NCBI GenBank assembly: GCA_965223905.1
Contig: CBDCXV010000009.1
Span: 832,001-896,000, forward strand
DNA from: Candidatus Latescibacterota bacterium
GTDB taxonomy: Bacteria; Latescibacterota; UBA2968; UBA8231
Length of the DNA: 64,000 nucleotides
Direction of reading: 5' to 3'
Under the pieces are notes generated by a model, which saw nothing but the letters and a program-made list of their open reading frames with translations, did no database searches and was not told the origin of the DNA. The position numbers and the translations under genes were made by a program. Below are positions 11,121-34,209 of this stretch, piece by piece (the stretch's first letter is position 1; each line of letters opens with the position of its first letter).

Positions 11121-11611
11121 TCAAGCCGGCGGCCCGCTTCTCAGCACGGTCACGGTCCCTTCCTCGTCGGTGAGGGTCAGGGTGTCCCCTGCGACCTCGA
11201 AGAAAAGCGGCGTGTCCTCGATGAGGCCGGCCTCCATGTCGGCGAGGATCTCCTCCCGCGCGGCGGCGATCTCCTCGCCGGTCAGCTTCTCGCCGGTGAT
11301 CTCCTCCATCGCGGCCACCAGCAGGGCCACCAGCTCGTCGACCAGCTCCTCCTGCGTCTGCCCGTTGAAGGTCAGGGTGGAAGGATCGACGGTGACCCGC
11401 AGGGAGTCCCCGTCCGTCTCCCACGTCCCCGAGTACTCGACGGTCAGGGTGTCGGTGCCCAGGGGGATCGTGGCGGACACCGACATACGGCATCGTCGCC
11501 CAGGTGCAGGATCAGGCCCTCGCCGTCCTGTTCGGTCTCCCACGTCCCGACCTGCGCCGTGCTTGCGCCGGCCAGCATCCCGACGAGGGCGAGGGTGATA
11601 GCTGCTCTCAT
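11121..11611 (-). pseudogene. Secreted acidic protein, frameshifted near 11490
   Basis: Signal peptide MRAAITLALVGMLAGASTA then VGTWET; continues in another frame (SGTWETDGDSL..GDTLTLTD). Confidence 0.55.
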
Positions 11612-11625
11612 GATGATTCTCCTTG

Positions 11626-11684
11626 CGGTTTCTTGGACGCGGCGGAAGTGCCGCGCCCTCATCAGCCCGTTGATTCGGGGACCG
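11626..11684 (-). ncRNA. Type III hammerhead ribozyme-like RNA, copy 1
   Basis: Minus strand: CGGUC|CCCG-aaucaa-CGGG CUGAUGA GGGCGCGGC-acuucc-GCCGCGUCC aa GAAA CCG. Confidence 0.7.
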
Positions 11685-11721
11685 ATTCAGGGGGAGCGCC
11701 GGCAAACGCTCCCCCTTGCCA

Positions 11722-13745
11722 TCAACCGCCGTCGCCGGGGTTGGGATCGAAGCCGGGAGGCGTCCAGCGCCGCACGCGATCCTTGGCCCGGTCGGACAGC
11801 ACTTCGCCGTCCGGGTTGCGGAAGATCGCCTCTGCGTGCTCGGCCAGCTCGCCCTTCTTGTAGCCCCTGAACCCATCGGCCCATTCCTCGTCGCCGGTTT
11901 CGGCCATCGTCGTGAGGATGGCTTTTTTGGGGATGCGGTTCCAGAACACCTCCTTGGACAGCCGGACCTCGGCAAACGGCGGCCCGAGGCGCTCGATGGC
12001 GGCTTCCAGCTCGACGGCCCTGCCGGTCTCGATGCCGAGTTGGTTGGTCAGCATCGAGGCGACGCAGAAGGCGAGCACGTCCTGCTTGTCGTTCTCGGGG
12101 ACCTCGCAGAAGGCTTGCCAGCACTCCCGCACCGTGCGCTCCTCCTTCGTGGCCAGCCACGGCTCGTGGCGTTGGGTGAGGGCCGCCGCGATCTCCCGAA
12201 ACCGCGCCTCGCCGGGGTTGTTTTGGGCGAACCCGTCGTCGTTGGTGCGCGGCGGCGGATGCGTCGCCGTGACCTCTGCGGAAAGCTCCAGCGCGCGGCG
12301 GTCGTAGTAGAGGCGGTCGCCCAGCATCTGCCGGCCAAGCTGGAAGATGAGCAGGTCCACCGCAACGAGGGGCCGGGTGGCCAGTTCCGCCTTGACTATT
12401 GAGGTTCGGATGTGCTTCAGGTCGTCGGCCAGCGCCTGCGACACCCCGGCGTCCTTGCGGGCCTCGGCCTCCGGGTTGGACGCTGAGGGGGCCTTCGTCC
12501 GGGGCTTCACGGTGCCGTTGCCGGCGTGGCCGTTGCTGCCCGTTTCGACCACCGCCTGAGCGGCCGCCGCGTCGTCGGGACGGATCAGGCCGCTTTCCGC
12601 CCGGACCGTGCCCCCGTGGGCCAGGTAGATGCACACGCCGGACGCGGCCATCTGCTCGGGAAGGAACGCGGTCCGCTGCTCGACGGCGCCGGTGATCTCG
12701 TTGTGCTGCCGCTCCAGCCTTTCGTATTCGTCCTCGTCCCACTCGTCGCCGCCGTCGTCCTCGTTGTCGTCGTACGCCTCGTGCAAGGTGCCCATCTTCT
12801 CCTCAAGCTCTTCCAGCTTGGCGGCCTCCTCGGGCGTAGGCTCCGGCTCGGGGCGTGAAAGCGGCCGTAGCCGGCCAGCGCGGTGTAGTCGTACTCGAGC
12901 AGCACGTCGACCCACTTCCAGCCCTCCTTTTTCAACTCGGCGGCGACCTCGTTCAGCTTGCTTGTCGCCAGCGTTTTGAGCAGTTGCGGGTCGTCGATGT
13001 AGACGCCGGCCTCGTCGTTTTCCGCGAACAGGTCCCGCGTGACGGTGCCGCCTGCGGCCTCGTACGCCTCGACGCCGACGAACTGCACCGCCGCCGATCC
13101 GCCGTTCAGTTTCTCCTCGACCAGCGCCGAGCGGATCGAGCGCGGGTTGACGTGATAGTGGCCCTCTACCGCCTTGAAACACGTCAACTGCGCCTCGGGG
13201 TCCGGCGACACGGTGAAGGCCATCAGGGCCTCCAGGTTGAGCTCCTCGTCCCGGTAGGCTTGCAGCAGGTCGGGGTGGACGGTCGCCAGCCGCAGCCGCT
13301 TCTCGACGGTTACCGGGGTCACGCCGAAGCGCTCGGCGATCTCCTCGACGGTATGCCCGGCCTCGTGCAGCCCGCGGAAGGCTTCCACCTGGTCGGCGGG
13401 GTGCATGTCGGCGCGCACCACGTTCTCGACAAGGCTGATCTCCCCGATCTCGTCCTTGTCGCCCATGATGAGGCACGGTACCGGGTAGGTGTCGCGGTCG
13501 ATCTTGCCGGCTGCGGCCAAGCGCGTCAGCGCCCCGAGGCGACGGCCCCCGGCCACGACCTCGTAGGCGTCGTCGGCCTCGGGGTGTCCGGACAGCAGGA
13601 CGTTGAGGTTCTGACGGACCCCATGAGCCTCGATGGACGCTTCGAGCGAATCGTCGTCAGCCTGCGACGCGGGGGTGGTGCGGACGTTGTGTTGAGACAG
13701 GCACAGCTGTCTCAGCGGAATCATCTCGATGTGGGATACGGTCAT
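11722..13745 (-). CDS. ParB/Spo0J-like protein of mobile-element leading regions (frameshift near 12855)
   Basis: NVRTT, SIEAHGVRQNL, VVAGGRRL, SLVENVVRADMHPADQ, HTH; C-terminal half in a second frame. Confidence 0.8.
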
Positions 13746-13824
13746 GATTCGAATTCTCACCTCTCAGAGTCGTTAAGAGGGGCGGACGCGCCCTGGTATA
13801 CTCGGGCACGTCCGCCCCCCCGGT

Positions 13825-14193
13825 TTAGTCCAGCGGTTGCAGCCGCCGCGCCTCGATCTCGACGATCGAGTGCGGGTTGTCGTCGTCGTCCCGCCACGAG
13901 TGCGACGCCAGCCTGCCGGTGACGAACACCGGCGACTGCTTGCGGAGGCCGCAGGCGCCGTATTCGGCCTCCTTGCCGCGAGCGATGACGTTGAAGTAGT
14001 GGCATTCGTCCTGCCATTCGCCGTCGCGGTCGCGGTAGGAGCGGTGGACGACGAGCCGCAGGGACAGACGCGGCTGGCCCTCGTCGGTGATGCGGTACTC
14101 GGGGTCCATGTGCAGCCTGCCGGCGATGCACACCTGATTGACGGCGGGCATGGGCAGGGCCGGACGCGGCTCCTGTCGGGTCTGTTCGGTCAT
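13825..14193 (-). CDS. ssb: Single-stranded DNA-binding protein (lacks acidic tail)
   Basis: NQVCIAGRLHMDPEYR, GEWQD..YFNVIA.GK.AE, VFVTGRL..SW. Confidence 0.9.
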   Translation of the reverse strand: MTEQTRQEPRPALPMPAVNQVCIAGRLHMDPEYRITDEGQPRLSLRLVVHRSYRDRDGEWQDECHYFNVIARGKEAEYGACGLRKQSPVFVTGRLASHSWRDDDDNPHSIVEIEARRLQPLD

Positions 14194-14321
14194 GGGGTTC
14201 TCCATTTGGGTAAGGGGGGACAGAAGCGCACAGGCGAGCCCGTGCGCCCCTCTCGTTGGGATTCAGCCGGTTCTCCGGTATTTGTCCGGCAGCCGCCTGA
14301 TGGCTTTCTGGCCCCGGTGCA

Positions 14322-14873
14322 TCACGAAGTCGGCCCCGGCCTCAGCTGCCTGCCGGTAGACGTCGGCGATAGTCGGCCCGGCCCCGTGCCGATAGCGTCC
14401 GAACCGCCACTTGAAATGGAGGTTGCGGCCCGCGAAGCCTTCGACGGCGGGGTGGGGTCGACCTCGATGATCTGCGCGACGGACAGGTAGACTTCCGCCG
14501 CGTCGGCCAGCATCTCCCGCACTTGAGGGTCATAGGTCCGCTTGGTGAAGTCCGTCACCCGGTACAGGTCCAGCGGGAAGTCCAACGGGGCGGGGTCATG
14601 GTACACGAGCCCGTTCCGCTGCTCGTCGAAGCGGGCGATCCACACCCGCGCCTCGGCGGGAAGCAGCCCGGCCAGCAGGTTGCTGTTCTCGATGAATTGC
14701 CCGTTGTCGTAGGCGATCAGGTGAACGCCGCCGGTATCGCAGAAACAGCCGGTGGCCCGGTTCGCGGCCAGCGCCGCAGGGCAGGAGCGGCACTTGGCGA
14801 TCTGCCCGTGCTTGATGTCCCCGTCCCGGATCTCGACGGTGACACTCAGCGCGGGGGTCAGGTTGTTGCCCAT
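14322..14873 (-). CDS. Hypothetical protein (C-terminus possibly frameshifted)
   Basis: GAGGAG RBS; C..CPAALA motif. Confidence 0.5.
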   Translation of the reverse strand: MGNNLTPALSVTVEIRDGDIKHGQIAKCRSCPAALAANRATGCFCDTGGVHLIAYDNGQFIENSNLLAGLLPAEARVWIARFDEQRNGLVYHDPAPLDFPLDLYRVTDFTKRTYDPQVREMLADAAEVYLSVAQIIEVDPTPPSKASRAATSISSGGSDAIGTGPGRLSPTSTGRQLRPGPTS

Positions 14874-14937
14874 TCCGTTCTTTCCTCCTCAGCGTGATGG
14901 GCAGGGGGGCCGGCCCCAAACCGGCCCCCCTTGCCCT

Positions 14938-15117
14938 CTATGCAGCCGTGCGGCGAGCGGTGCGCCGCTGACGGGGGGTCGGGATGCCGTAGCGCCGGCA
15001 GAGCCGCCCGAAGCTGGACGGGGCGATCCCGAGGGCAGCGGCCGCGTCGCCGGTCGTGCGGTAGATCCGCGCCGCTTTCTCGATGCGCTCGGGCGGGTAG
15101 GCGGTTTGTTTGCTCAT
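14938..15117 (-). CDS. Small HTH protein
   Basis: ERIEKAARIYRTTGDAAAALGIAPSSFGRLCRRYGI; ATGA overlap with radC stop. Confidence 0.65.
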   Translation of the reverse strand: MSKQTAYPPERIEKAARIYRTTGDAAAALGIAPSSFGRLCRRYGIPTPRQRRTARRTAA

Positions 15118-15845
15118 ACGATGCCCGTCTCCTTCAGGCTGCAGAAATCCGAGCGGGCGATGATGATGTGATCGAGGACCTCGATGCCCATGATGAGCCC
15201 GGCCTCCCGGAGCCTGTGCGTCAGGTCGATGTCGTCCTTGGAGGGCGACACGTCCCCGGAGGGGTGATTGTGGGCGAGGATGACCGACGCCGCGCACTTG
15301 GCCACGCCGACCCGGAACACTTCGCGGGGGTGGACGATGGAGGCCGACAGCGAGCCGATGCTTACGACCTCCTTGTGGATCACCTGATTGCGGGCGTTCA
15401 GATACAGGCAGACGAAGAACTCTTTCGGTTCGTCCTTGATGTCGGCCAGCAGCGGAATCGTCTCGGTGGGGGTGCTGATGACGGGCAGGATGCCGATGCC
15501 GCGATCCAGCGCACGGCGGGCGATCTCGACGGCGGCCAGCAGACGCGCCGCGCGGCAGGACGTGACGCCGCGCAAGGCAGCCAGCTTGTCGACGCTCAGG
15601 TTGACCAGCTCACCGAAGTCGAAGCGCTCGGCGATCTCGCGGGCGTCCTCCTCGGTGCTGCCCAAGGCCACGGCGAGCAGCTCCGAATCGCGCATGGACT
15701 CGGCACCGTCCGAAATCAGCCGCTCGCGGCACGTAGGAGTCGCCAGAGGGCCGTCGTACACCGGGCCGGTCTCTGCTGATACCCTGTCGGCCCCGTGCGC
15801 CGGACGGGCGCAGGTGACGCGGTCTGCGGGGGTGTGCATCTTCAT
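15114..15845 (-). CDS. radC: RadC/JAB-domain protein
   Basis: KEFFVCLYLNARN, IVHPREVF, LAHNHPSGDVSPSKDD, VLDHII. Confidence 0.92.
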   Translation of the reverse strand: MKMHTPADRVTCARPAHGADRVSAETGPVYDGPLATPTCRERLISDGAESMRDSELLAVALGSTEEDAREIAERFDFGELVNLSVDKLAALRGVTSCRAARLLAAVEIARRALDRGIGILPVISTPTETIPLLADIKDEPKEFFVCLYLNARNQVIHKEVVSIGSLSASIVHPREVFRVGVAKCAASVILAHNHPSGDVSPSKDDIDLTHRLREAGLIMGIEVLDHIIIARSDFCSLKETGIV

Positions 15846-15928
15846 GGCTATCCATTCTCCTTGACAGAGGGTGATGGTGTGTTGTGGGAGGGGGGGACCT
15901 TGCGCGGTCCTCCCCTCCCTTTTTGTGC

Positions 15929-16708
15929 CTACTCCAACAGCCGGCAGGCGATGCGGCCCAAGACTTCGCGGACCGCGTTCGTCGGCTCGGCGTGGATGAT
16001 CTCCTGCAGCTCGGCGGCGACCTCGGCCCGGACCTCGACGCAGACCTCGCCGCGCACTTCGTCGCGGATCCGCTGCCTGTGCCGGGTGGCCTCGGCGATG
16101 CGCTCCTGTTCCTCGACCACATCCCGCGCCCGCCGTACCTGTGCCTTCCAGTGCTCGCCGTTGAGGGTGTGCAGCCCGTTCTCGTACTGCGCCCGCGCCG
16201 GATGGCGGAAGCGCCGGAAGTCGAACGGTACCCAGTTGGCGAAGTCGGCCGCCGCCGCCTTCAGGATTTTCCCGGCGTCCATGCCGTGCTCGGGGTGCAA
16301 CTGAACCTCCAGCCGCTTGTCGAGAGGACGGGCGGCCAGTTCCAGCGCCACCCGCTCCAGCACGTCGAAGTCGCCGGCCCGGTCATAGGCGTCGATGGCG
16401 TTCTGAATCCAGTACTTGCACTGCACGTCGTCGGCCATCTTCACGGCGGTATCAAACTCGATGTCGTCCAGATCGCCGCCGGCGCGGATCTCGGCAGCCC
16501 GCCGCAGCCGCACCTTGCCCCCGTCGAAGCGGAACAGGTAGGCCGGCAGGGTCCACGGTTTCGCCTCGGCCGCCAGCGCGATGCAGGCCATCCGATCCCC
16601 GGCCAGCACGGCGGTGCGGTGCAGCTTGAGGAGCGTGTTATACGACCGCTTCACGGCGTCCCCTTGCCTGTCGTCAGCCCCGGCCCCGTTGCCGTTGGTG
16701 TGCTTCAT
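15929..16708 (-). CDS. Hypothetical protein
   Basis: 259-aa ORF with AAGGA RBS, GC3-rich codons. Confidence 0.65.
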   Translation of the reverse strand: MKHTNGNGAGADDRQGDAVKRSYNTLLKLHRTAVLAGDRMACIALAAEAKPWTLPAYLFRFDGGKVRLRRAAEIRAGGDLDDIEFDTAVKMADDVQCKYWIQNAIDAYDRAGDFDVLERVALELAARPLDKRLEVQLHPEHGMDAGKILKAAAADFANWVPFDFRRFRHPARAQYENGLHTLNGEHWKAQVRRARDVVEEQERIAEATRHRQRIRDEVRGEVCVEVRAEVAAELQEIIHAEPTNAVREVLGRIACRLLE

Positions 16709-16724
16709 CGGTTTTCGTCCTTTC

Positions 16725-16783
16725 CGGTTTCTTGCCCCCCGCCCGATTGCAGGAGGCTCGTCAGCCCGTCGATTCGGGGACCG
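16725..16783 (-). ncRNA. Type III hammerhead ribozyme-like RNA, copy 2
   Basis: Minus strand: CGGUC|CCCG-aaucga-CGGG CUGACGA GCCUCCUGC-aaucgg-GCGGGGGGC aa GAAA CCG. Confidence 0.7.
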
Positions 16784-16830
16784 AGCAGCGCCGGTGCCTG
16801 AGAGGGAGACAGGCCCCGGCGCTGAGATGC

Positions 16831-17472
16831 CTACCGGTACTTCAGATAGGCCGGTTTTCCGACCGAAACGGGCGGACCGAGCTTGAGGGGGAAGGATTCG
16901 CCGGCAAACTCCCGGCAGGGCGCGCACAGGCCGTCCGCATCGTCGGTGCCAGCAAGGCGGGTGTCGCAGCGAGGGCAGACCTTGCGCGAGCTGGCAGGGT
17001 CGGCAGCGCCGTCGACGAGGCCGACGGCCGTCAGGCCGGTCAGGTCCTCCAGCAGCGGCACCGCGGCGCGGTAGCGCTCGATCTTCATGGCCATCATCAA
17101 CGCAAGGCACTTGCCCTTTTCGCCGATCAGGTCCAACAGCGCTAGCACGATGGGCGCCTCGCAATCCTCCTCGGCCCATCCCGAGCCATTCAGGAAGCCC
17201 ATGAGCAGGTGAGCCGGCAGACGGTCCTGAACCTCGACGGACAGCCGCAGGCCGCCGTGGGAAGCCGTAGCGACGAGGTCGACGCCATCGGCGAGGGTGT
17301 CCGTGTGCTCGATCAAGCCCCACGGCGAAGACTTCGAGCAGCGGACAGGGTTGGAGAACTCGCTGTGCGAGGATCTTGTCGCCTTCGGCCAGGCCGACGA
17401 GGCAGGACACACCAGCATGTCGGCGCGCTCAATGAGCTTCAGGCCGCAAGTGCAGTGTCCGGGTTTACGCAT
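16831..17472 (-). CDS. DUF7007-like protein
   Basis: SPWG...LADGV..VATASHGGLRLS...WAEEDCE motif set. Confidence 0.7.
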   Translation of the reverse strand: MRKPGHCTCGLKLIERADMLVCPASSAWPKATRSSHSEFSNPVRCSKSSPWGLIEHTDTLADGVDLVATASHGGLRLSVEVQDRLPAHLLMGFLNGSGWAEEDCEAPIVLALLDLIGEKGKCLALMMAMKIERYRAAVPLLEDLTGLTAVGLVDGAADPASSRKVCPRCDTRLAGTDDADGLCAPCREFAGESFPLKLGPPVSVGKPAYLKYR

Positions 17473-17682
17473 GGTTTCAATCCTTTTCCGGTTGTGAGAC
17501 TCACGATGCCGCAGCGCCGGCATCGCAGGGTGTAGACGTTGGCCGGCACGCTGACCGAAGCCCAATCGCTAACCGTCCCGGCACAGGCAGGACCACACCC
17601 AACCGGGAACAGCGGCCCGCTTGCGCTCCATCGCATCGCGGGAGCGCCGCAGGGTTACGAGGGGTTTGTTGTCCATTCGGGA

Positions 17683-22901: not shown

Positions 22902-24166
22902 ACGACAATCCGACCACCGCCCAGCCTTGGCGAGCCGTCATACGCGATTTGTTCACTGAGTGGGAAACGCGACGTAATGATGAGCCCAACCCAGCTCTGG
23001 AGATGCTGGAACGCCTGCGCAACTTTTTTGAGCCCTCTGAAGACGTCCCGACTGAACAGGAACCGCCGGCCGCCGAAATCCTGGATGCAGCCCACAAGGC
23101 ATGGAAAGAAAACCCTGACGACCCGGCAGTTCTACACAACCTGCTCGAAAAAAAGAAACCGCAGCTGTTTCAACCCGCGTCCGTATGGAAAGACGCCGTA
23201 GACCCGGCCCCCATACTGTGGCGTGACAACCCGGAGGACCGTTATGCCCACAGCGTAGTGTCAGAGGGGGAAGTCGGCATCCTGAGCAGCGCCGGAGGAA
23301 CCGGCAAATCCTACCTGTCCCTGGCGTGGGCTCAGGCGGCCTGCAAGGCTCATGCGGCGCTTCCCCCGGTAAGCCACGGAGCCGCCTGTGGTCTGCGAGT
23401 AGCTGCCGGCCCGGTGGCCCTGATCAGCTACGAGGATACCCCGGAGCGCATTGCGGTGCGCCTCGGGAACATAGGCTCGATTCCGGACGACCTGTACGTG
23501 TGGCCCGACCCGGCCCCCTTGTGGCACGGAGAAGCCGAGGTAGGCGGCGTAAGCCTCCCGGCTCCACAATGGTCCGACGTGTGGGAACAGATCCGTCAGA
23601 TCGGAGCAAAGCTGCTGATAGTTGACCCGGCATCGGCCGCTCTCGCCGACGTGTCTACGTCAGAAACCGGTCCCGTGCGCGCCTTTCTGCGCGCGATGAC
23701 CTTGGAAGCGAAACGCGCCGGATGCGGTGTCCTGATCGTGGCCCACAATACCAAAGCCGCCCGCATAGCCATAGCGCAAGGCGACCTGGAGACGGGGGCC
23801 GCGGATCCAGTGGCCGGTTCGTCGGTGTGGCATGACGGTGCCCGCGGCGTGCTCGTGTTGACGCGCGATCGGCTATCCAAAACCGATCGCGTATTGGTTC
23901 TTGCCAAGTCGAACTACGGTCGTACTGGCTGGGGGGCCCGGTTGAAGGAACGGTTCCTTGACGAAAACAAACAACATTTTGCCGGCTTGGAACTGGGGAC
24001 CGTCATGGATTCGGATGCAGTAAACGCATGGAGCGAGTCCGTTGCGACGAGCAAGAGAAGAACCAATCAGGAAAAGAAGGAAAAACCAACCTCCAGCCGG
24101 ATTGCCGACTCCGGTTCACAAGACCCAGAAGATTGGACAGTAGAAGAGGATGAACAACAACAGTAA
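22898..24166 (+). CDS. AAA_25 / RepA-like SF4 helicase
   Basis: Walker A AGGTGKS, SYED, LLIVDP, VLIVAHNTK, GSSVW..GAR, KSNY; ATGA overlap. Confidence 0.85.
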   Translation: MNDNPTTAQPWRAVIRDLFTEWETRRNDEPNPALEMLERLRNFFEPSEDVPTEQEPPAAEILDAAHKAWKENPDDPAVLHNLLEKKKPQLFQPASVWKDAVDPAPILWRDNPEDRYAHSVVSEGEVGILSSAGGTGKSYLSLAWAQAACKAHAALPPVSHGAACGLRVAAGPVALISYEDTPERIAVRLGNIGSIPDDLYVWPDPAPLWHGEAEVGGVSLPAPQWSDVWEQIRQIGAKLLIVDPASAALADVSTSETGPVRAFLRAMTLEAKRAGCGVLIVAHNTKAARIAIAQGDLETGAADPVAGSSVWHDGARGVLVLTRDRLSKTDRVLVLAKSNYGRTGWGARLKERFLDENKQHFAGLELGTVMDSDAVNAWSESVATSKRRTNQEKKEKPTSSRIADSGSQDPEDWTVEEDEQQQ

Positions 24167-28380: not shown

Positions 28381-28686
28381 ATGGGGCAAGCCGATCAGAG
28401 ACGGAAAGAAAACCAAGCCCGCCGGCAGATGCTGCCGCTAGCGTGGGAATTGAAGCACCAGTGGACGCAGGCCCGCCCGAAGATGGTGGAGGAGATGAGG
28501 GCGGGGGGGGTCTTGTTCCAGTTATTGGAACAGGCCGGGGAGAGGGGGGCCCGGATGTACGACCACCTCCGGGACAACAAGGGCCTGACACACGAAGAGG
28601 CGATGGAGCTGGTCCTGGACGACCTGGAGAAGCTCCCCGAGGAGAACCAGCCGGAGATCGGGGGGCCGGTGCTCCCCTACAGCTAA
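28381..28686 (+). CDS. Hypothetical protein
   Basis: Starts 1 nt after previous stop; LKHQW..ARPKMVEEM..GLTHEEAMELV. Confidence 0.6.
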   Translation: MGQADQRRKENQARRQMLPLAWELKHQWTQARPKMVEEMRAGGVLFQLLEQAGERGARMYDHLRDNKGLTHEEAMELVLDDLEKLPEENQPEIGGPVLPYS

Positions 28687-28795
28687 AACGGCTACTAACC
28701 GGAAGCCTCTCCAAATTCGGACAAGGCTTGGGTGGGGGGGCCGCGCCCGCGTGGCGGCATCCCCCCCACCACTTCCAAGGAGAGGGAGGGAAGAA

Positions 28796-31384
28796 TTGAC
28801 CACGAAAAAACGGGGCATCGAGCCTTACGAGCACACAGATAAGACCCGCGCGAACAATCCGGACGTCGGCCTCGTCACCCCGTCGACGGATCCGGACGCG
28901 GACGCGAAGACCTACGACCACGACCCCCACCTCGACCCGCAGCTGTCCTGGGCCGGCAAGGCGGAGAACACCTCGTTCGAGGTGCCCACCGTCTCCCTGC
29001 ACGTGCACGAGCGCATCGAGCCGCGCACCATCATCGAAGCCGTGCGCAAGGGCAACGGCCGGCCGGAAGATCAACTCTCGTTCTTCTCCCGGCCGGAGGA
29101 GAACCGCCCGCTCCGCGAGGCCATCGACTTCTACCGCCACCGACGCAACTGGAGCAACCGCCTCATCGCCGGCGACAGCCTGCTGGTGATGAACAGCCTG
29201 CTGGAGAAGGAGGGCCTGGGCGGACAGGTGCAGATGGTCTACGTCGACCCGCCCTACGGCATCAACTACGGCTCGAACTTCCAGCCTTTCGTCAACAAGC
29301 GGGACGTGCCCTCCAGCGACAAGGACGAGGATTTGACAACCGAACCGGAGCAGATCCGCGCCTTCCGGGATACCTGGGAGCTGGGCATCCACTCCTATCT
29401 CTCCTGCCTGCGGGACCGCCTGTTGCTGGCCCGCGAGCTGCTGCACGAAAGCGGCAGCTGCTTCGTGCAGATCGGCGATGAGAACGTGCACCTGCTCGGC
29501 GCCGCGATGGACGAAATCTTCTGTCCCGAGAACCGCGTGGCCACCATCACCTACGCAACGACGGGCGGCAGCTCCGCCAAGACGTTGCCGGAGGTCGCCG
29601 ACTACCTGCTCTGGTACGCGAAAGACAAGAACCAGGTGAAGTTTCGGCAGCTGTACGAACCGCTCACACGGAGAGAAACCATCGATTTTTTCAGTTCGTA
29701 TGCGGGCGTCGAGTTGCCAGACGGTCAAAGCCGCAAACTGACACCGGAAGAGCGTTTTGATCCGGACAAGCATTTACCGGAGGGCGCGCGGATTTATCGG
29801 CGCATGAACCTGGCTTCCCGAGGTGCTTCAACTACAGGCCGTTCGGATCCTTACGAACATGAGGGCCGAGTCTTTGATGTAAGTTTCGGGGGAAATCTTC
29901 AGTGGAGAGTTTCTCCGGAGGGACTAGACCGCCTCGCGGAGCTAAGCCGACTGGAGGCGAAAGGGCAGGGATCGCTGGGGTGGAAACTGTACGAAGACGA
30001 GGTTCCGGGCCGGCGAATCCACAACGTCTGGTCCGCCCAGATGTCGGAGAAGAACAAAGGCTACGTCGTCCAGACCGCGGCGAAAGCGATTCAGCGTTGT
30101 ATCCTGATGACTACCGACCCGGGGGACCTGGTCTTCGACCCCACCTGCGGCGGCGGTACCACCGCCTACGTCGCCGAGCAGTGGGGCCGTCGCTGGATCA
30201 CCTGCGACACGTCCCGGGTGGCGGTCTTCGCCGCGCGAGCGCGACTGATGACCGCCCATTTCGACTACTATCAGCTGGCCCATCCCGCCGAGGGCGTCGG
30301 GGCGGGTTTTCGATACCGAAGCGTCGATACCGTGTCCGCCAGAACCCTGGCCTACGACGAACCGCCCAACAAAACCTTCCTCTACGACAAGCCGCACGTC
30401 GATCGCAAGAAAGCCCGCGTCACCGGCCCGTTCATGGTCGAGGCGGTGCCTCCGCCGGCGGCACCGGCGCAGGTAACGTCGCTGGACGAAATCGGCGAAG
30501 TGGCCGCGCCACCTGCTGTCTCCCCCGATTCGGCTGCCCGCAGCGGCCCGACCGTGAGCCAGGCCGACTGGCGCGACGAACTGCTGAAAACCGGCATCCG
30601 CTGCAGGGCCGGGCAGCGCCTCTCCTTCACGCGGCTCGAGCCCCTGCCGGCGACCCGATGGCTGCACGCGGACGGCGAGACCTCCGACCCCGATTCCGGA
30701 TCCACCCGGATCGTGGTCTCCTTCGGGCCGGATCATGCTCCCCTGGAACAGCGCCAGGTCGCCCGCGCCATTGAGGAAGCACAGAGGCTCGTTCCCGAGC
30801 CCGGAGTCATCGTCTTCGCCGCCTTCCAGTTCGACCCCGAGGCGGCCAAGGACATCGACGAAACCCACTGGCCCGGCGTCACCCTGCTCAAGGCGCAGAT
30901 GAACGCCGATCTGCTGACCGACGATCTCAAGAAGAAACGCGCCAGCAACGAGACCTTCTGGCTGATCGGGCAGCCCGACGTGGCAGTCGAGAAAATCGCG
31001 GAAAACGGAATGCTGCAAATCTCCGTTCAGGGCTTCGACTACTACAACACCCGGACCGGCACCGTCGAACCCGGAGGCGCTGACCGAATCGCCGTGTGGA
31101 TGCTCGACCCCGACTACGACGGCCGTAGCGTGTTTCCCCGGCAGGTGTTCTTTCCGATGGCCGACCCGAAATACAATTGGGACGTGCTTGCCCGCATCCT
31201 CAAGGCCGAAATAGACGCCGACCGGATTGTAGCCTACCGCGGCACCACCTCCTTGCCGTTCGAGTCCGGAGAACACGGCCGGGCGGCCGTCAAGATCGTC
31301 GACGACCGGGGGATCGAGAGTCTCAAGGTGATCGTGCTCGAGGAAGAGCAGTTCCAGGGCGGCGACCGAGTGAGCCCCGGATAG
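28796..31384 (+). CDS. mod: Type III R-M DNA methyltransferase (Mod)
   Basis: NRLIAGDSL, VYVDPPYG, FDPTCGGGTT; TTG start after GAGGGAGG. Confidence 0.9.
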   Translation: MTTKKRGIEPYEHTDKTRANNPDVGLVTPSTDPDADAKTYDHDPHLDPQLSWAGKAENTSFEVPTVSLHVHERIEPRTIIEAVRKGNGRPEDQLSFFSRPEENRPLREAIDFYRHRRNWSNRLIAGDSLLVMNSLLEKEGLGGQVQMVYVDPPYGINYGSNFQPFVNKRDVPSSDKDEDLTTEPEQIRAFRDTWELGIHSYLSCLRDRLLLARELLHESGSCFVQIGDENVHLLGAAMDEIFCPENRVATITYATTGGSSAKTLPEVADYLLWYAKDKNQVKFRQLYEPLTRRETIDFFSSYAGVELPDGQSRKLTPEERFDPDKHLPEGARIYRRMNLASRGASTTGRSDPYEHEGRVFDVSFGGNLQWRVSPEGLDRLAELSRLEAKGQGSLGWKLYEDEVPGRRIHNVWSAQMSEKNKGYVVQTAAKAIQRCILMTTDPGDLVFDPTCGGGTTAYVAEQWGRRWITCDTSRVAVFAARARLMTAHFDYYQLAHPAEGVGAGFRYRSVDTVSARTLAYDEPPNKTFLYDKPHVDRKKARVTGPFMVEAVPPPAAPAQVTSLDEIGEVAAPPAVSPDSAARSGPTVSQADWRDELLKTGIRCRAGQRLSFTRLEPLPATRWLHADGETSDPDSGSTRIVVSFGPDHAPLEQRQVARAIEEAQRLVPEPGVIVFAAFQFDPEAAKDIDETHWPGVTLLKAQMNADLLTDDLKKKRASNETFWLIGQPDVAVEKIAENGMLQISVQGFDYYNTRTGTVEPGGADRIAVWMLDPDYDGRSVFPRQVFFPMADPKYNWDVLARILKAEIDADRIVAYRGTTSLPFESGEHGRAAVKIVDDRGIESLKVIVLEEEQFQGGDRVSPG

Positions 31385-34209
31385 TGCCCCCCCGAAAAAA
31401 TATCGATCAGTTGATCGTCAACTCCCCCTATGAGGAGCCGACGAGATATTGGGACCAGGACCGAAAGTCGCGGCTGTTCGACCTGAAAGATGGCCGGCGT
31501 CCGGCCGGGTACGTCGTTTCCTCCAACGGAGCCGATGCCTTCGACGATCCCGGCAGGTTCATTGAGATTCCGCTGGTCAACCGCATCCGTCCTCGCGTCA
31601 AAGCCTGGCGTGAGGCCGGGTACCCGGGCGTGACCGGAATCACCAAGCGCCTGTTGGAGTACTGGACCGACGAGCCGGAAATGCGGGGCGATCACCGGTT
31701 CTTTTTCTGCCAGCTGGAGGCCGTCGAAACGCTGATCTGGCTCACCGAGGGGCCGGAGGTCGAGAAGGTCGGCATCGAGATCCCCTCCGATGGAGGGGCG
31801 TTCCGGCGCTTGTGCGAGAAGATGGCGACCGGCACCGGCAAGACGGTCGTCATGGCGATGGTCATCGCCTGGCAGATCCTCAACAAGGTCGCCTACCCGC
31901 AGGACGCCCGGTTTTCCAGGCACGTCCTGGTCATCGCGCCCGGGCTCACCGTCAGGAGCCGGTTGGGGGTGTTGGTTCCACCCGATCCGAACAACTGCTA
32001 CCGCGAATTCGACATCGTACCGTCCGCCCAGCTCGACAAGCTGCGCCAGGGCACGGTGATCGTTCGCAACTGGCACGCGCTCAACTGGGAAACGGAGGAG
32101 CAGGTCGCTCGGAAACGGGGCGTGGACAAGCGAGGCCCCAAAAGCGATGCGGCCTATGTGCGCGAGGTCCTGGGCGAAATGGAGAAGGGCCGCAACATCC
32201 TGGTCATCAACGACGAGGCGCATCATGCCTACCGTCCTGCAGCCGAGACCAAAGCCAGCAAAACAGAGGAAGAGAAAGCTACCCGATGGGTCGCCGGCCT
32301 CGACCGGATCGCTCGGAGGCGGGGAATCCTGGCCTGCTACGATTTCTCGGCAACCCCCTTCGCCCCCTCGGACAAGCGGCGCCCTGAAGAGACCCTGTTC
32401 GACTGGATCGTCAGCGACTTCGGCTTGAGCGACGCCATCGAGTCGGGACTGGTCAAAACGCCGCGGGTGGTGATCCGGGACGACACCTTGCCGACGTCGC
32501 AAACCGACCGATCTCGCTACTACTCTCGCTTCTACCACCTCTACAACCATCCCGAGGTCAAGGACGACCTGAACCGCCGCGCCAAGCCCGAAGAACCCCT
32601 GCCGGACCTGGTCACGAACGGCTATTTCCTGCTCGGCTACGACTGGCGCGAAACGGCCCGGAACTGGAGCTCGCGGACCCCTCCGAGCCAGACCCCTCCG
32701 GTGATGATTACCGTCGCCAACCGCACGGAGACGGCGGCCCGGATCAAGTATGCCTTCGACCGGAGGAGAATCCGCATCGACGAGCTCTGTCGTCCGGAGC
32801 GCACCCTGCACATCGACTCGAAGGTGCTCGCCGAAGCCGAGGAGGCCGAAGAACCGATCGCCGACGTCCAAGGATCCCCGGACAGCACCCCCAACGGCCG
32901 CAAGCCGTCCCGGAAACAGCGGGCGGAGCTGCTGCGGCGGCAGGTGGACACCGTGGGCCGGGCCGGCAAGGAGGGCGGACAGATTCAGAACGTCATTTCG
33001 GTCCAAATGCTCTCGGAGGGCTGGGACGCGAAGACAGTGACTCACATCATGGGGCTGCGCGCGTTCACCAGCCAGTTGCTCTGCGAGCAAGTCGTGGGGC
33101 GCGGGCTGCGCCGGACGTCCTACGAGATAAATCCGGAGACCGGTCTGTTCGAGCCCGAGTACGTCAACGTTTTCGGCGTGCCTTTCCGGTTTCTGCTCCT
33201 CGAGGGCGGCCAAAACGACGACGAGCCGCCACCGCCGCCGCCCGAACCGAAGACCGCCATCGAACCGGTTCCGGAGAAGGCGGAGTTTGAAATCTCCTGG
33301 CCTAACGTGATCCGCATTGACCACAGCTACCAGCCACGCTTGGCGCTGGATTGGGACCGCCTGCCGCCCCTGGAGATCGACGCCAGCCAGACGGCCTCGC
33401 TTGCGGAGCTGGCACCGGTCGTCGACGGCGAGCCGGACGTGACGAAGATTAAGGCCATCGATCTAAAAAAGCTGCGCGGGGAACGCCGCACCCAGACGAT
33501 CATTTTCGAGACCGCGGCGGAGGTGTACGATCAGCTGCAGGCCAACTGGAAGGGGCGCCGGGAGTTTTTGTTGGCGCAGGTGGTGAAGCTGGTCGAGCAG
33601 TTCATCAGGCGACCCGGCACCCTCCGCATCCATCCGGCCCTGTTCCAGCGCGACGAATTCAAGCGGGACCTCGCCATCACCCTCAACATGACCAAGGTGG
33701 TGCGGCACCTGTGGGAAGCGATCCGGGACGCCGGGACCGAGAAGCGGATTCCGGTGTTCGATCAGGATCAGCCGGTGCGCTCGACTGCGGACATGCGAAC
33801 CTGGTACACCAGCAGGCCGGTCGAATACACCCAACGCACCCACATCAACTACTGCGTCGTCGACAGCACCTGGGAATCGAGCGATTCCTTCGCCCTCGAC
33901 CATGCCGACGAAGTGGCCGCCTGGGTCAAGAACGACCACCTCGGCTTCGAGGTGTTCTACGTCTATCAGGGGGTCGTGCGGAAATACCGTCCGGACTTCC
34001 TGGTCCGCCTGATGTCAGGGGATATGCTGGTGCTGGAAACGAAAGGGCGGGACAGAGACAGCGAGCAGAATAAGGAAAAACGCAAAGCGCTGGAGGAATG
34101 GGTCGCAGCCGTCAACGATCACGGCGGCTTCGGGCGCTGGTGCTGCGCGGTGGCCAAGCGCCCCGGCGATATTCAGGATATTTTCGCCATTTCAAGCTGC
34201 TGTTTGTAA
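31384..34209 (+). CDS. res: Type III restriction helicase-endonuclease (Res)
   Basis: KMATGTGKT, INDEAHH, FSATP, MLSEGWD, QVVGRGLRR, YRPDFLV..LETKG. Confidence 0.9.
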   Translation: MPPRKNIDQLIVNSPYEEPTRYWDQDRKSRLFDLKDGRRPAGYVVSSNGADAFDDPGRFIEIPLVNRIRPRVKAWREAGYPGVTGITKRLLEYWTDEPEMRGDHRFFFCQLEAVETLIWLTEGPEVEKVGIEIPSDGGAFRRLCEKMATGTGKTVVMAMVIAWQILNKVAYPQDARFSRHVLVIAPGLTVRSRLGVLVPPDPNNCYREFDIVPSAQLDKLRQGTVIVRNWHALNWETEEQVARKRGVDKRGPKSDAAYVREVLGEMEKGRNILVINDEAHHAYRPAAETKASKTEEEKATRWVAGLDRIARRRGILACYDFSATPFAPSDKRRPEETLFDWIVSDFGLSDAIESGLVKTPRVVIRDDTLPTSQTDRSRYYSRFYHLYNHPEVKDDLNRRAKPEEPLPDLVTNGYFLLGYDWRETARNWSSRTPPSQTPPVMITVANRTETAARIKYAFDRRRIRIDELCRPERTLHIDSKVLAEAEEAEEPIADVQGSPDSTPNGRKPSRKQRAELLRRQVDTVGRAGKEGGQIQNVISVQMLSEGWDAKTVTHIMGLRAFTSQLLCEQVVGRGLRRTSYEINPETGLFEPEYVNVFGVPFRFLLLEGGQNDDEPPPPPPEPKTAIEPVPEKAEFEISWPNVIRIDHSYQPRLALDWDRLPPLEIDASQTASLAELAPVVDGEPDVTKIKAIDLKKLRGERRTQTIIFETAAEVYDQLQANWKGRREFLLAQVVKLVEQFIRRPGTLRIHPALFQRDEFKRDLAITLNMTKVVRHLWEAIRDAGTEKRIPVFDQDQPVRSTADMRTWYTSRPVEYTQRTHINYCVVDSTWESSDSFALDHADEVAAWVKNDHLGFEVFYVYQGVVRKYRPDFLVRLMSGDMLVLETKGRDRDSEQNKEKRKALEEWVAAVNDHGGFGRWCCAVAKRPGDIQDIFAISSCCL

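Follow-up and report, generated by a model that had tools for sequence, protein, structure and literature searches.

Two putative hammerhead-derived ribozymes of a distinct subclass between genes of a mobile-element-like region in Candidatus Latescibacterota

We analyzed a 64,000-nucleotide (nt) stretch of a Candidatus Latescibacterota genome (contig CBDCXV010000009.1, positions 832,001 to 896,000; hereafter the window), in which a row of minus-strand genes is interrupted by two short intergenic elements that resemble hammerhead ribozymes. In the direction of transcription, the row reads DUF7007, copy 2 of the element, an open reading frame (ORF) of 259 amino acids (aa), RadC, a 183-aa protein, SSB, a ParB-like protein, copy 1 and three small ORFs (Table 1). 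The two copies lie 5.1 kb apart. Each follows a GC-rich hairpin, and the distance from the end of the element to the next start codon is 14 nt for copy 1 (ATG 11611) and 16 nt for copy 2 (ATG 16708). An earlier note on this DNA had described two 59-nt minus-strand elements of identical geometry, each placed after a hairpin that follows the upstream stop and about 15 nt before an ATG. Its coordinates and geometry are exact, and the hairpins are there. The note had also claimed that the stem II sequences are almost wholly different yet both paired, and both points hold.

Both copies are built in the order CGGUC / CCCG-AAUCRA-CGGG / CUGAYGA / stem II of 9 base pairs (bp) with a 6-nt loop / AA / GAAACCG. 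Copy 2 has CUGACGA as its 5' core strand and AAUCGA as loop I, and its geometry is that of copy 1. Stem II is fully paired in both, through the arms GGGCGCGGC/GCCGCGUCC in copy 1 (one G.U) and GCCUCCUGC/GCGGGGGGC in copy 2 (two U.G). Both hold C3, U4, G5, A6, Y7, G8 and A9, the pair G10.1-C11.1, G12, A13 and A14, the pair A15.1-U16.1, and C17. The cleavage-site triplet is GUC in both, and the cleavage positions proposed earlier (11680/11679 and 16779/16778) are correct for a cut 3' of C17.

These arrangements are not a product of chance. The 27-nt 5' half shared by the copies occurs twice in the window and in none of 100 dinucleotide shuffles. The pattern CTGAYGA-N18-34-GAAAC has three matches in the window against 0.28 expected, a number that none of 100 shuffles reached; the third match is an unrelated plus-strand site (23115-23159). 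When copy 1 was folded alone, the minimum free energy (MFE) structure was the proposed one (-26.7 kcal/mol, z -2.48, with 3 of 200 shuffles as good). The MFE structure of copy 2 keeps stems I and II (-26.1 kcal/mol, z -1.85, 7 of 200 shuffles). A long-range pairing between the sequence before the hairpin and the start-codon region, seen in the MFE structures of the window copies, was dropped as it is not conserved in the paralogues.

Table 1 Features of the window that adjoin or contain the two elements. All positions are those of the window; bp, base pairs; nt, nucleotides; aa, amino acids; SD, Shine-Dalgarno.
Feature	Position	Strand	Remarks
Hammerhead-variant copy 1	11626..11684	-	59 nt; 84.9 bits with model R1, 79.6 bits with model R2
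Copy 1 stem III	11681-11684 with 11626-11629	-	
Copy 1 C17	11680	-	predicted cut between 11680 and 11679
Copy 1 stem I	11676-11679 with 11666-11669	-	loop I AAUCAA 11670-11675
Copy 1 5' core strand CUGAUGA	11659-11665	-	
Copy 1 stem II	11650-11658 with 11635-11643	-	loop II 11644-11649
Copy 1 inserted AA	11633-11634	-	GAA 11630-11632
Hammerhead-variant copy 2	16725..16783	-	59 nt; 83.3 bits with model R2
Copy 2 C17	16779	-	predicted cut between 16779 and 16778
GC-rich 12-bp hairpin	11689-11716	-	between stop TGA 11722-11724 and copy 1
GC-rich hairpin, 9+5 bp, C/U-rich 9-nt loop	16786-16824	-	between stop TAG 16831-16833 and copy 2
SD AAGGAG (11619-11624) and 55-aa ORF (ATG 11611)	11444..11624	-	first gene downstream of copy 1; no family match
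SD-like GAAAGGA (16718-16724) and 259-aa ORF (ATG 16708)	15929..16724	-	downstream of copy 2; no family match
DUF7007-domain gene	16831..17565	-	ends just before hairpin and copy 2; start uncertain
RadC gene	15114-15845	-	
Gene for 183-aa protein	between RadC and SSB	-	
SSB gene	13825-14205	-	
ParB-like gene region	11722..13760	-	ends just before hairpin and copy 1

The same genome carries four copies in all, two in the window and two on the same contig 404 kb away. The distant copies are 770 nt apart, flank a 145-aa gene and precede a paralogue of the 259-aa gene (87% identical), which is followed by RadC. A second genome of the genus (G002) has one copy (locus L014) ahead of its 259-aa gene, with a stem II of 10 positions that includes one G.A mismatch. 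All five copies were found by their 5' halves only, and all retain C-AA-GAAACCG. Homologues of the 259-aa protein were present in 2 of 132 genomes of the class, these two, and only beside copies of the element; a protein search gave no match to it in plasmids or phages. A search of 101 related genomes with model R1 gave matches in 34 at an expectation value (E) of up to 0.1, and among the 33 matches aligned (29 loci) only L014 is real. Model R2, run over a sample of 151 genomes of the phylum, gave real matches only in the two genomes named. One of 24 loci from a scan of genome contigs is real (L066), with an element identical to that of L014. BLAST of the elements, which are short queries, against named phages and plasmids returned no match.

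Viral contigs are where most relatives were found. Pattern scans and a covariance model together recovered more than 80. The model, R2, was built only from the 6 GC-rich copies. It assigns 19.6-56 bits to 78 further places in AT-rich viral loci, and 72 of these reach at least 39 bits. It also finds second copies, about 360-900 nt apart, in 7 viral loci, and these had been selected by no pattern. A viral scan that required GGUC, CUGAYGAG and AAGAAACC with suitable spacing yielded 15 loci. One of them (L067/G101, in a complete 92-kb phage contig with terminal repeats) has the full architecture. It shows compensatory changes in stem I (CACG/CGUG) and stem III (AGGU/ACCU), an unrelated 7-bp stem II, and AAACGA as loop I. 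The scan for GUC, CUGAYGAG and CAAGAAAC returned at least 120 loci with at least 122 matches. Among the matches listed, 22 pass the stem filter, and in every one of these stem I is 4 bp long, the 6-nt loop is AAUUAA, AAUGAA or AAACGA, and stem III has 3-5 bp; the other matches listed are mostly one conserved coding sequence without the stems. In the converse scan, only GUY, a stem I of 4 or 5 bp with a closing G-C pair, the loop AAUUAA and CUGAUGAG were fixed. Its matches with a fully paired stem I number 81, of which 67 have a stem of 4 bp and 14 one of 5 bp. A scan with the loop type of the window copies (AAUCRA) gave 10 loci, 8 of them with a paired stem I.

Canonical hammerheads and permuted forms were met in the same scans. 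From a metagenome scan that used only the 5' half came 31 loci, among them L111, a circularly permuted (type II) relative in which the AA is present although the pattern did not require it. Here stem I reads CCCG-AAUUAA-CGGG, the stretch CUGAUGA-GGAACC pairs with an upstream GGUUCC and is followed by AA and GAAAC, and stem III is closed. That scan also returned canonical type II hammerheads with a 5-bp stem I and no AA, among them L085 (38.2 bits with RF02276). At 3031-3102 on the plus strand of L085, 2.5 kb from the canonical hammerhead, there is an int-alpA RNA (RF02996, 49.2 bits). None of the 9 loci from a viral scan for type II forms of the AA variant is real, and one of them (L121) is a canonical type II hammerhead. 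In L134, a hammerhead with a canonical core and the same loop I (1687-1745, 33.4 bits with RF00008) lies on the same strand as an AA variant (3153-3207), 1.4 kb away.

We examined pairing and conservation over 56 distinct sequences in an alignment fitted to the model. Standard pairs occupy 97.9% of 886 pair cells, compared with 19-45% when the partners are slid. Double-sided changes were found at 12 of 17 pairs (194 cells) and in all three helices, and none of 500 shuffles reached the covariation score. The 6 GC-rich copies alone gave 98% standard pairs and 7 of 17 pairs with double changes, again with 0 of 500 shuffles as high. Two pairs of stem II are U.G in 40 and 38 of the 56 sequences, which indicates a strand-specific structure. 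The core is nearly invariant: C3 is kept in 53, U4 and G5 in 55 each, and A6, G8, A9 and GAAA in all 56, although GUC, CUGAYGAG and G10.1-C11.1 were each required by one or other search pattern. Position 17 is C in 54 sequences, U in one and never G, and the A15.1-U16.1 pair is U-A in 55 of 55. Loop I is conserved as A-A-U-Y-R-A. Loop II and distal stem II are variable, while pair 6 of stem II is an invariant C-G (56 of 56) and pair 5 is C-G in 52 and G-C in 4. The catalytic positions are kept across members ranging from 35% to 70% G+C.

The most distinctive trait is the insertion of AA between C11.1 and G12, which is present in both window copies and in 53 of the 56 distinct members, the other 3 having a single A. 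In 81 of 81 elements found by the 5' half alone, AA accompanies a stem I of 4 bp with an AAUYRA loop. These comprise the 4 copies of the genome, 1 from the genome-contig scan, L111, all 67 with a 4-bp stem I in the converse scan (C-AA-GAAA after stem II was called by a parser in 56 and by eye in 11) and all 8 from the AAUCRA scan, one of which has U at 11.1. As these were found through patterns covering only the 5' half, the AA is not an artefact of the search. Taken in both directions, the scan counts show that the 4-bp stem I with its loop implies AA, and that AA with the core implies the 4-bp stem I and loop. The 14 relatives with a 5-bp stem I are different: 9 lack the insertion, 3 have one A in its place, and in 2 there is no GAAA downstream.

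This coupling to the length of stem I, together with the conserved loop I and the invariant C-G pair of stem II, suggests that the inserted adenosines belong to a tertiary contact holding stems I and II together. In hammerheads, such a contact allows fast cleavage at low Mg2+. Two pairings of loop I were considered and dropped. Kissing of loops I and II (AAUUA/UAAUU) fits some viral members, but loop II varies freely, and pairing of loop I with the spacer before the AUG is inconsistent. We also noticed that relatives with a 5-bp stem I and no junction insertion (such as L134:1687-1745, L263 and L274) seem to have 1-2 extra nucleotides, which as read by eye only form a bulge in stem II, on its 3' strand and at a distance of two to four pairs from the core. 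Loop I may have in the extra A a partner that can move.

The position of the elements relative to the ribosome-binding site is also regular. An SD sequence lies within 22 nt downstream of 59 of 60 unique viral elements. In 44 of these 60, a perfect complement of at least 5 nt that overlaps the SD is present within 20 nt upstream of the element, while shuffled flanks gave a mean of 7.1 and a maximum of 16 of 60 (200 trials). Anti-SD flanks such as CUCCAA, CCUCCA and UCCUCC pair with the downstream SD (for example in L309-L316, L253, L248 and L278), and in the group with the loop AAUCGA, stem III is itself a 10-bp anti-SD:SD helix. Single examples of the canonical relatives with a 5-bp stem I have the same anti-SD flank, showing that it is not specific to the AA variant. 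No complement of at least 5 nt was found at the two window copies, where the GC hairpin precedes the element instead, and an anti-SD role was rejected for them on that ground.

Neither of these two hairpins is followed by a U run, and terminator scoring did not find either to be terminator-like on the minus strand. C/U-rich loops (UCUCCCUCU; CUUUCCCCUCUC) cap the hairpins that precede copies 2 and 4. The loop in the window (16795-16815) gives a weak CcsR1-like Rfam match (18.5 bits, E 0.019). At copy 4, CCUUU at the base of the preceding hairpin (L005) is complementary to a downstream AAAGG. A strong 14-bp G/C hairpin at 15886-15919, between the 259-aa gene and RadC, has no ribozyme adjoining it and scored as terminator-like on the plus strand only.

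The gene content of this region is that of an integrated mobile element; no integrase or tRNA was found in the window. The ParB-like region consists of two overlapping frames, 12585-13760 with ParB N-terminal and helix-turn-helix domains, and 11722-12742 with no match. The best NCBIfam match of the former is PRTRC ParB, and related profiles are 555-634 residues long. The split may reflect a single gene with a frameshift, or an assembly error. Divergent genes on the plus strand encode a DUF7146 protein, an AAA_25 ATPase and a methylase/ResIII pair. At 28589-34209 (plus strand), the ORFs for the N6/N4 DNA methylase and the ResIII helicase overlap by about 200 nt, resembling a type III-like restriction-modification pair within the island. 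In three of four public DNA runs (X3, X4 and X10), contigs join position 16784, the base adjoining the 5' end of copy 2, to 17021 and skip 236 bases. Related elements apparently have a mosaic make-up in which the edge of the ribozyme forms a boundary. The earlier note had spoken of an 'early' operon. The genes at hand (DUF7007, RadC, SSB and ParB-like) show a mobile-element-like region only.

The element is plainly homologous to hammerheads: it shares their junction, their eleven core nucleotides and their rule for the cleavage site. What sets the subclass apart is a stem III and a stem I of 4 bp each, the latter with an AAUYRA loop, together with a long stem II whose sixth pair is an invariant C-G and AA before G12. 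The earlier note's reading of the elements as hammerhead-type three-way junctions on the transcribed strand agrees with the co-directional gene row and the compensatory changes in all three stems. Its expectations that homologues would keep CUGANGA/GAAA and the pairing, and that AA before GAAA together with a 4-bp stem III marks a variant family, were borne out by the 56 aligned sequences and by the four genome copies, the one in the congener, the viral relatives and the type II form. Catalysis is inferred from the homology and from the conservation of every catalytic nucleotide. As the elements also share the genomic habit of prophage clusters that cleave, we read them as self-cleaving processing sites. 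They are probably hammerhead-derived type III self-cleaving RNAs of a distinct subclass that cut a polycistronic transcript.

In this mechanism, the element would be transcribed within the minus-strand polycistron (DUF7007, the 259-aa ORF, RadC, SSB, ParB-like and small ORFs) and would cleave itself 3' of C17 at 11680 and 16779. The upstream product would end in the GC hairpin and a 2',3'-cyclic phosphate. At the start of the downstream product there would be a 5'-OH and the folded ribozyme, 3-5 nt before the SD. The operon would thereby be split into units that can differ in stability and translation. In the phage members, cleavage would sever the anti-SD from the message. A bolder version appeals to us with somewhat less than even confidence: that this is an uncatalogued active subclass in which the AA, the 4-bp stem I, the AAUYRA loop and the C-G pair replace the loop-loop or pseudoknot contact of other hammerheads, and in which cleavage in phages licenses translation of the next gene.

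Several observations weigh against self-cleavage. The MFE structure of copy 2 is not the active fold, as a GUC:GAC pairing takes the place of stem III. One of the paralogous copies (C9:429334-429389, which is L005:2274-2329, minus strand) reads CUAACGA, with A at G5; it has an 8-bp stem II with a 5-nt loop and everything else is intact. The G5 to A change is expected to kill catalysis, and this copy may be inactive. Three relatives found by model R2 (L270:2368-2422, L265:13288-13341 and L256:3647-3698, all minus strand) carry the 8-nt U[A/G]UGAAGA in place of CUGAYGA, with C3 replaced and a single inserted A. The subvariant resembles an indel in one strand of the junction that is offset by a change in the opposite strand, and with it the core is less rigid than that of classic hammerheads. 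Close kinship among many viral members means that the counts overstate the number of independent events. With RF00008, copy 2 scores 14.7 bits (E 1.6) against a gathering score of 48.5, and copy 1 gives no match at E up to 10. Finally, the literature examined describes no active hammerhead with an insertion beside G12, although the supplementary alignments of PMC3088659 may contain one.

An alternative is a hammerhead-derived fold with no or negligible cleavage, kept as a structured leader that would serve as a protein-binding site, a 5' stabiliser or a translational element before the SD. In its favour, the AA insertion adjoins the general base G12, the G5A copy preserves all other features, the 5' core strand is altered in one subvariant, members lie directly upstream of the SD, and Rfam scores are below threshold. 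However, a structural role needs neither the full set of catalytic positions nor a cleavage-site nucleotide other than G, and both are kept from 35% to 70% G+C. A natural permutation (L111) and a canonical hammerhead in the same operon (L134) are moreover typical of active ribozymes, and we consider the leader unlikely. There is a slimmer chance that activity of the AA variant depends on a factor or a condition (a metal, a protein or engagement of the ribosome), which would make operon processing a regulated step. Core variants with altered metal or salt dependence are documented, as in the 2a/2b insertion of a saltern hammerhead (PMC3088659) and the A6C variant of Bcep176, which favours Mn2+ (PMC7151607). 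The anti-SD:SD helix that extends stem III in the 44 viral members would link cleavage with translation. The elements have no ligand-binding domain, though, loop II and distal stem II are variable, and the two window copies are without the complement. Least credible, to a point close to dismissal, is an element acting as DNA, whether as operator, as recombination site or as a single-strand DNA structure of the mobile element. It is repeated in a mobile-element-like region, and the contig joints described above fall exactly at the 5' edge of copy 2 (16784-17021). Yet the pairing relies on G.U wobbles, which become A.C mismatches on the other strand, the orientation is always sense, with a stop before the element and an SD after it, the conserved single-stranded positions coincide with the hammerhead core, and the stems vary in sequence with a freedom that an operator would not have.

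Reviews describe the biological role of hammerheads in bacteria and phages as open (PMC6155905, PMC6765202). The AA-variant family is apparently uncatalogued and occurs mainly in phage DNA just upstream of ribosome-binding sites. A two-nucleotide insertion beside the catalytic guanine that is kept by evolution bears on how the active site is assembled, and its coupling to stem I length points to a new stabilising tertiary contact. The fixed place between a 3' hairpin or anti-SD and the next SD leads to a hypothesis of function, operon punctuation and cleavage-dependent translation. If true, it would provide a natural counterpart of engineered ribozyme switches that mask the ribosome-binding site, and a concrete function for bacterial hammerheads.

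Compared with the hammerhead consensus (Rfam clan CL00010), the elements have the three covarying helices, the 5' core strand, the A15.1-U16.1 pair and a non-G nucleotide at H17. They depart from it in that G12 does not directly follow C11.1 and in scoring below the Rfam gathering threshold. The earlier note had pointed to a search with Rfam hammerhead models, and in this search RF00008 matched copy 2 below threshold only and missed copy 1, and no Rfam model matched anywhere in the window at gathering. RF00008 found nothing in either of the two genomes at E up to 1, there were no matches at gathering in 12 viral loci (144 kb with at least 12 copies), and RF02276 did not detect L111 at E up to 0.1. 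Family members score 14.7-26.3 bits with RF00008. Falling below Rfam thresholds, the elements go unannotated in phage and mobile-element genomes. The type III hammerhead of RF00008 shares with them a junction open at stem III, GUC, CUGAYGA, G10.1-C11.1, GAAA and A15.1-U16.1. The window elements differ from it in the AA between C11.1 and G12, the 4-bp stem I with its conserved AAUYRA loop, and a stem II of 6-10 bp whose variable loop is unable to reach loop I. The abstract of Weinberg et al. 2015 (Nat Chem Biol) is said to mention divergent hammerhead architectures, and these may include AA-type sequences. The type II hammerheads of phages and bacteria (RF02276) share the core and the place upstream of the SD; stem I of L085 is similar, and L111 is the type II permutation of the AA variant. 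Canonical type II hammerheads are described as having a 5-bp stem I, no AA, and a pseudoknot between loop I and the 3' tail (PMC3088659).

In synthetic hammerhead devices (bacterial aptazymes and RiboJ-type insulators), the ribosome-binding site is masked in a ribozyme stem. The viral relatives whose 5' flank pairs with the SD (44 of 60) resemble them, whereas the devices are engineered and the window copies have a GC hairpin before them and no such complement. Among natural hammerheads, Perreault 2011 lists the insertions A6a, U13a and 2a/2b, two of which strongly lower activity (PMC3088659). The same source describes clustered hammerheads that flank genes of prophage-like regions and cleave in vitro, the one from A. 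tumefaciens also in E. coli. Those clusters have consensus cores and demonstrated cleavage, and none of the insertions listed there falls between 11.1 and 12 like that of the window elements. Both loci of the present genome show the clustered pattern, with several copies on the coding strand between genes. In the published clusters, too, several ribozymes lie on one strand between mobile-element genes, including those of anti-restriction and leading-region type, and the role proposed for them is likewise the processing of polycistronic RNA (PMC3088659).

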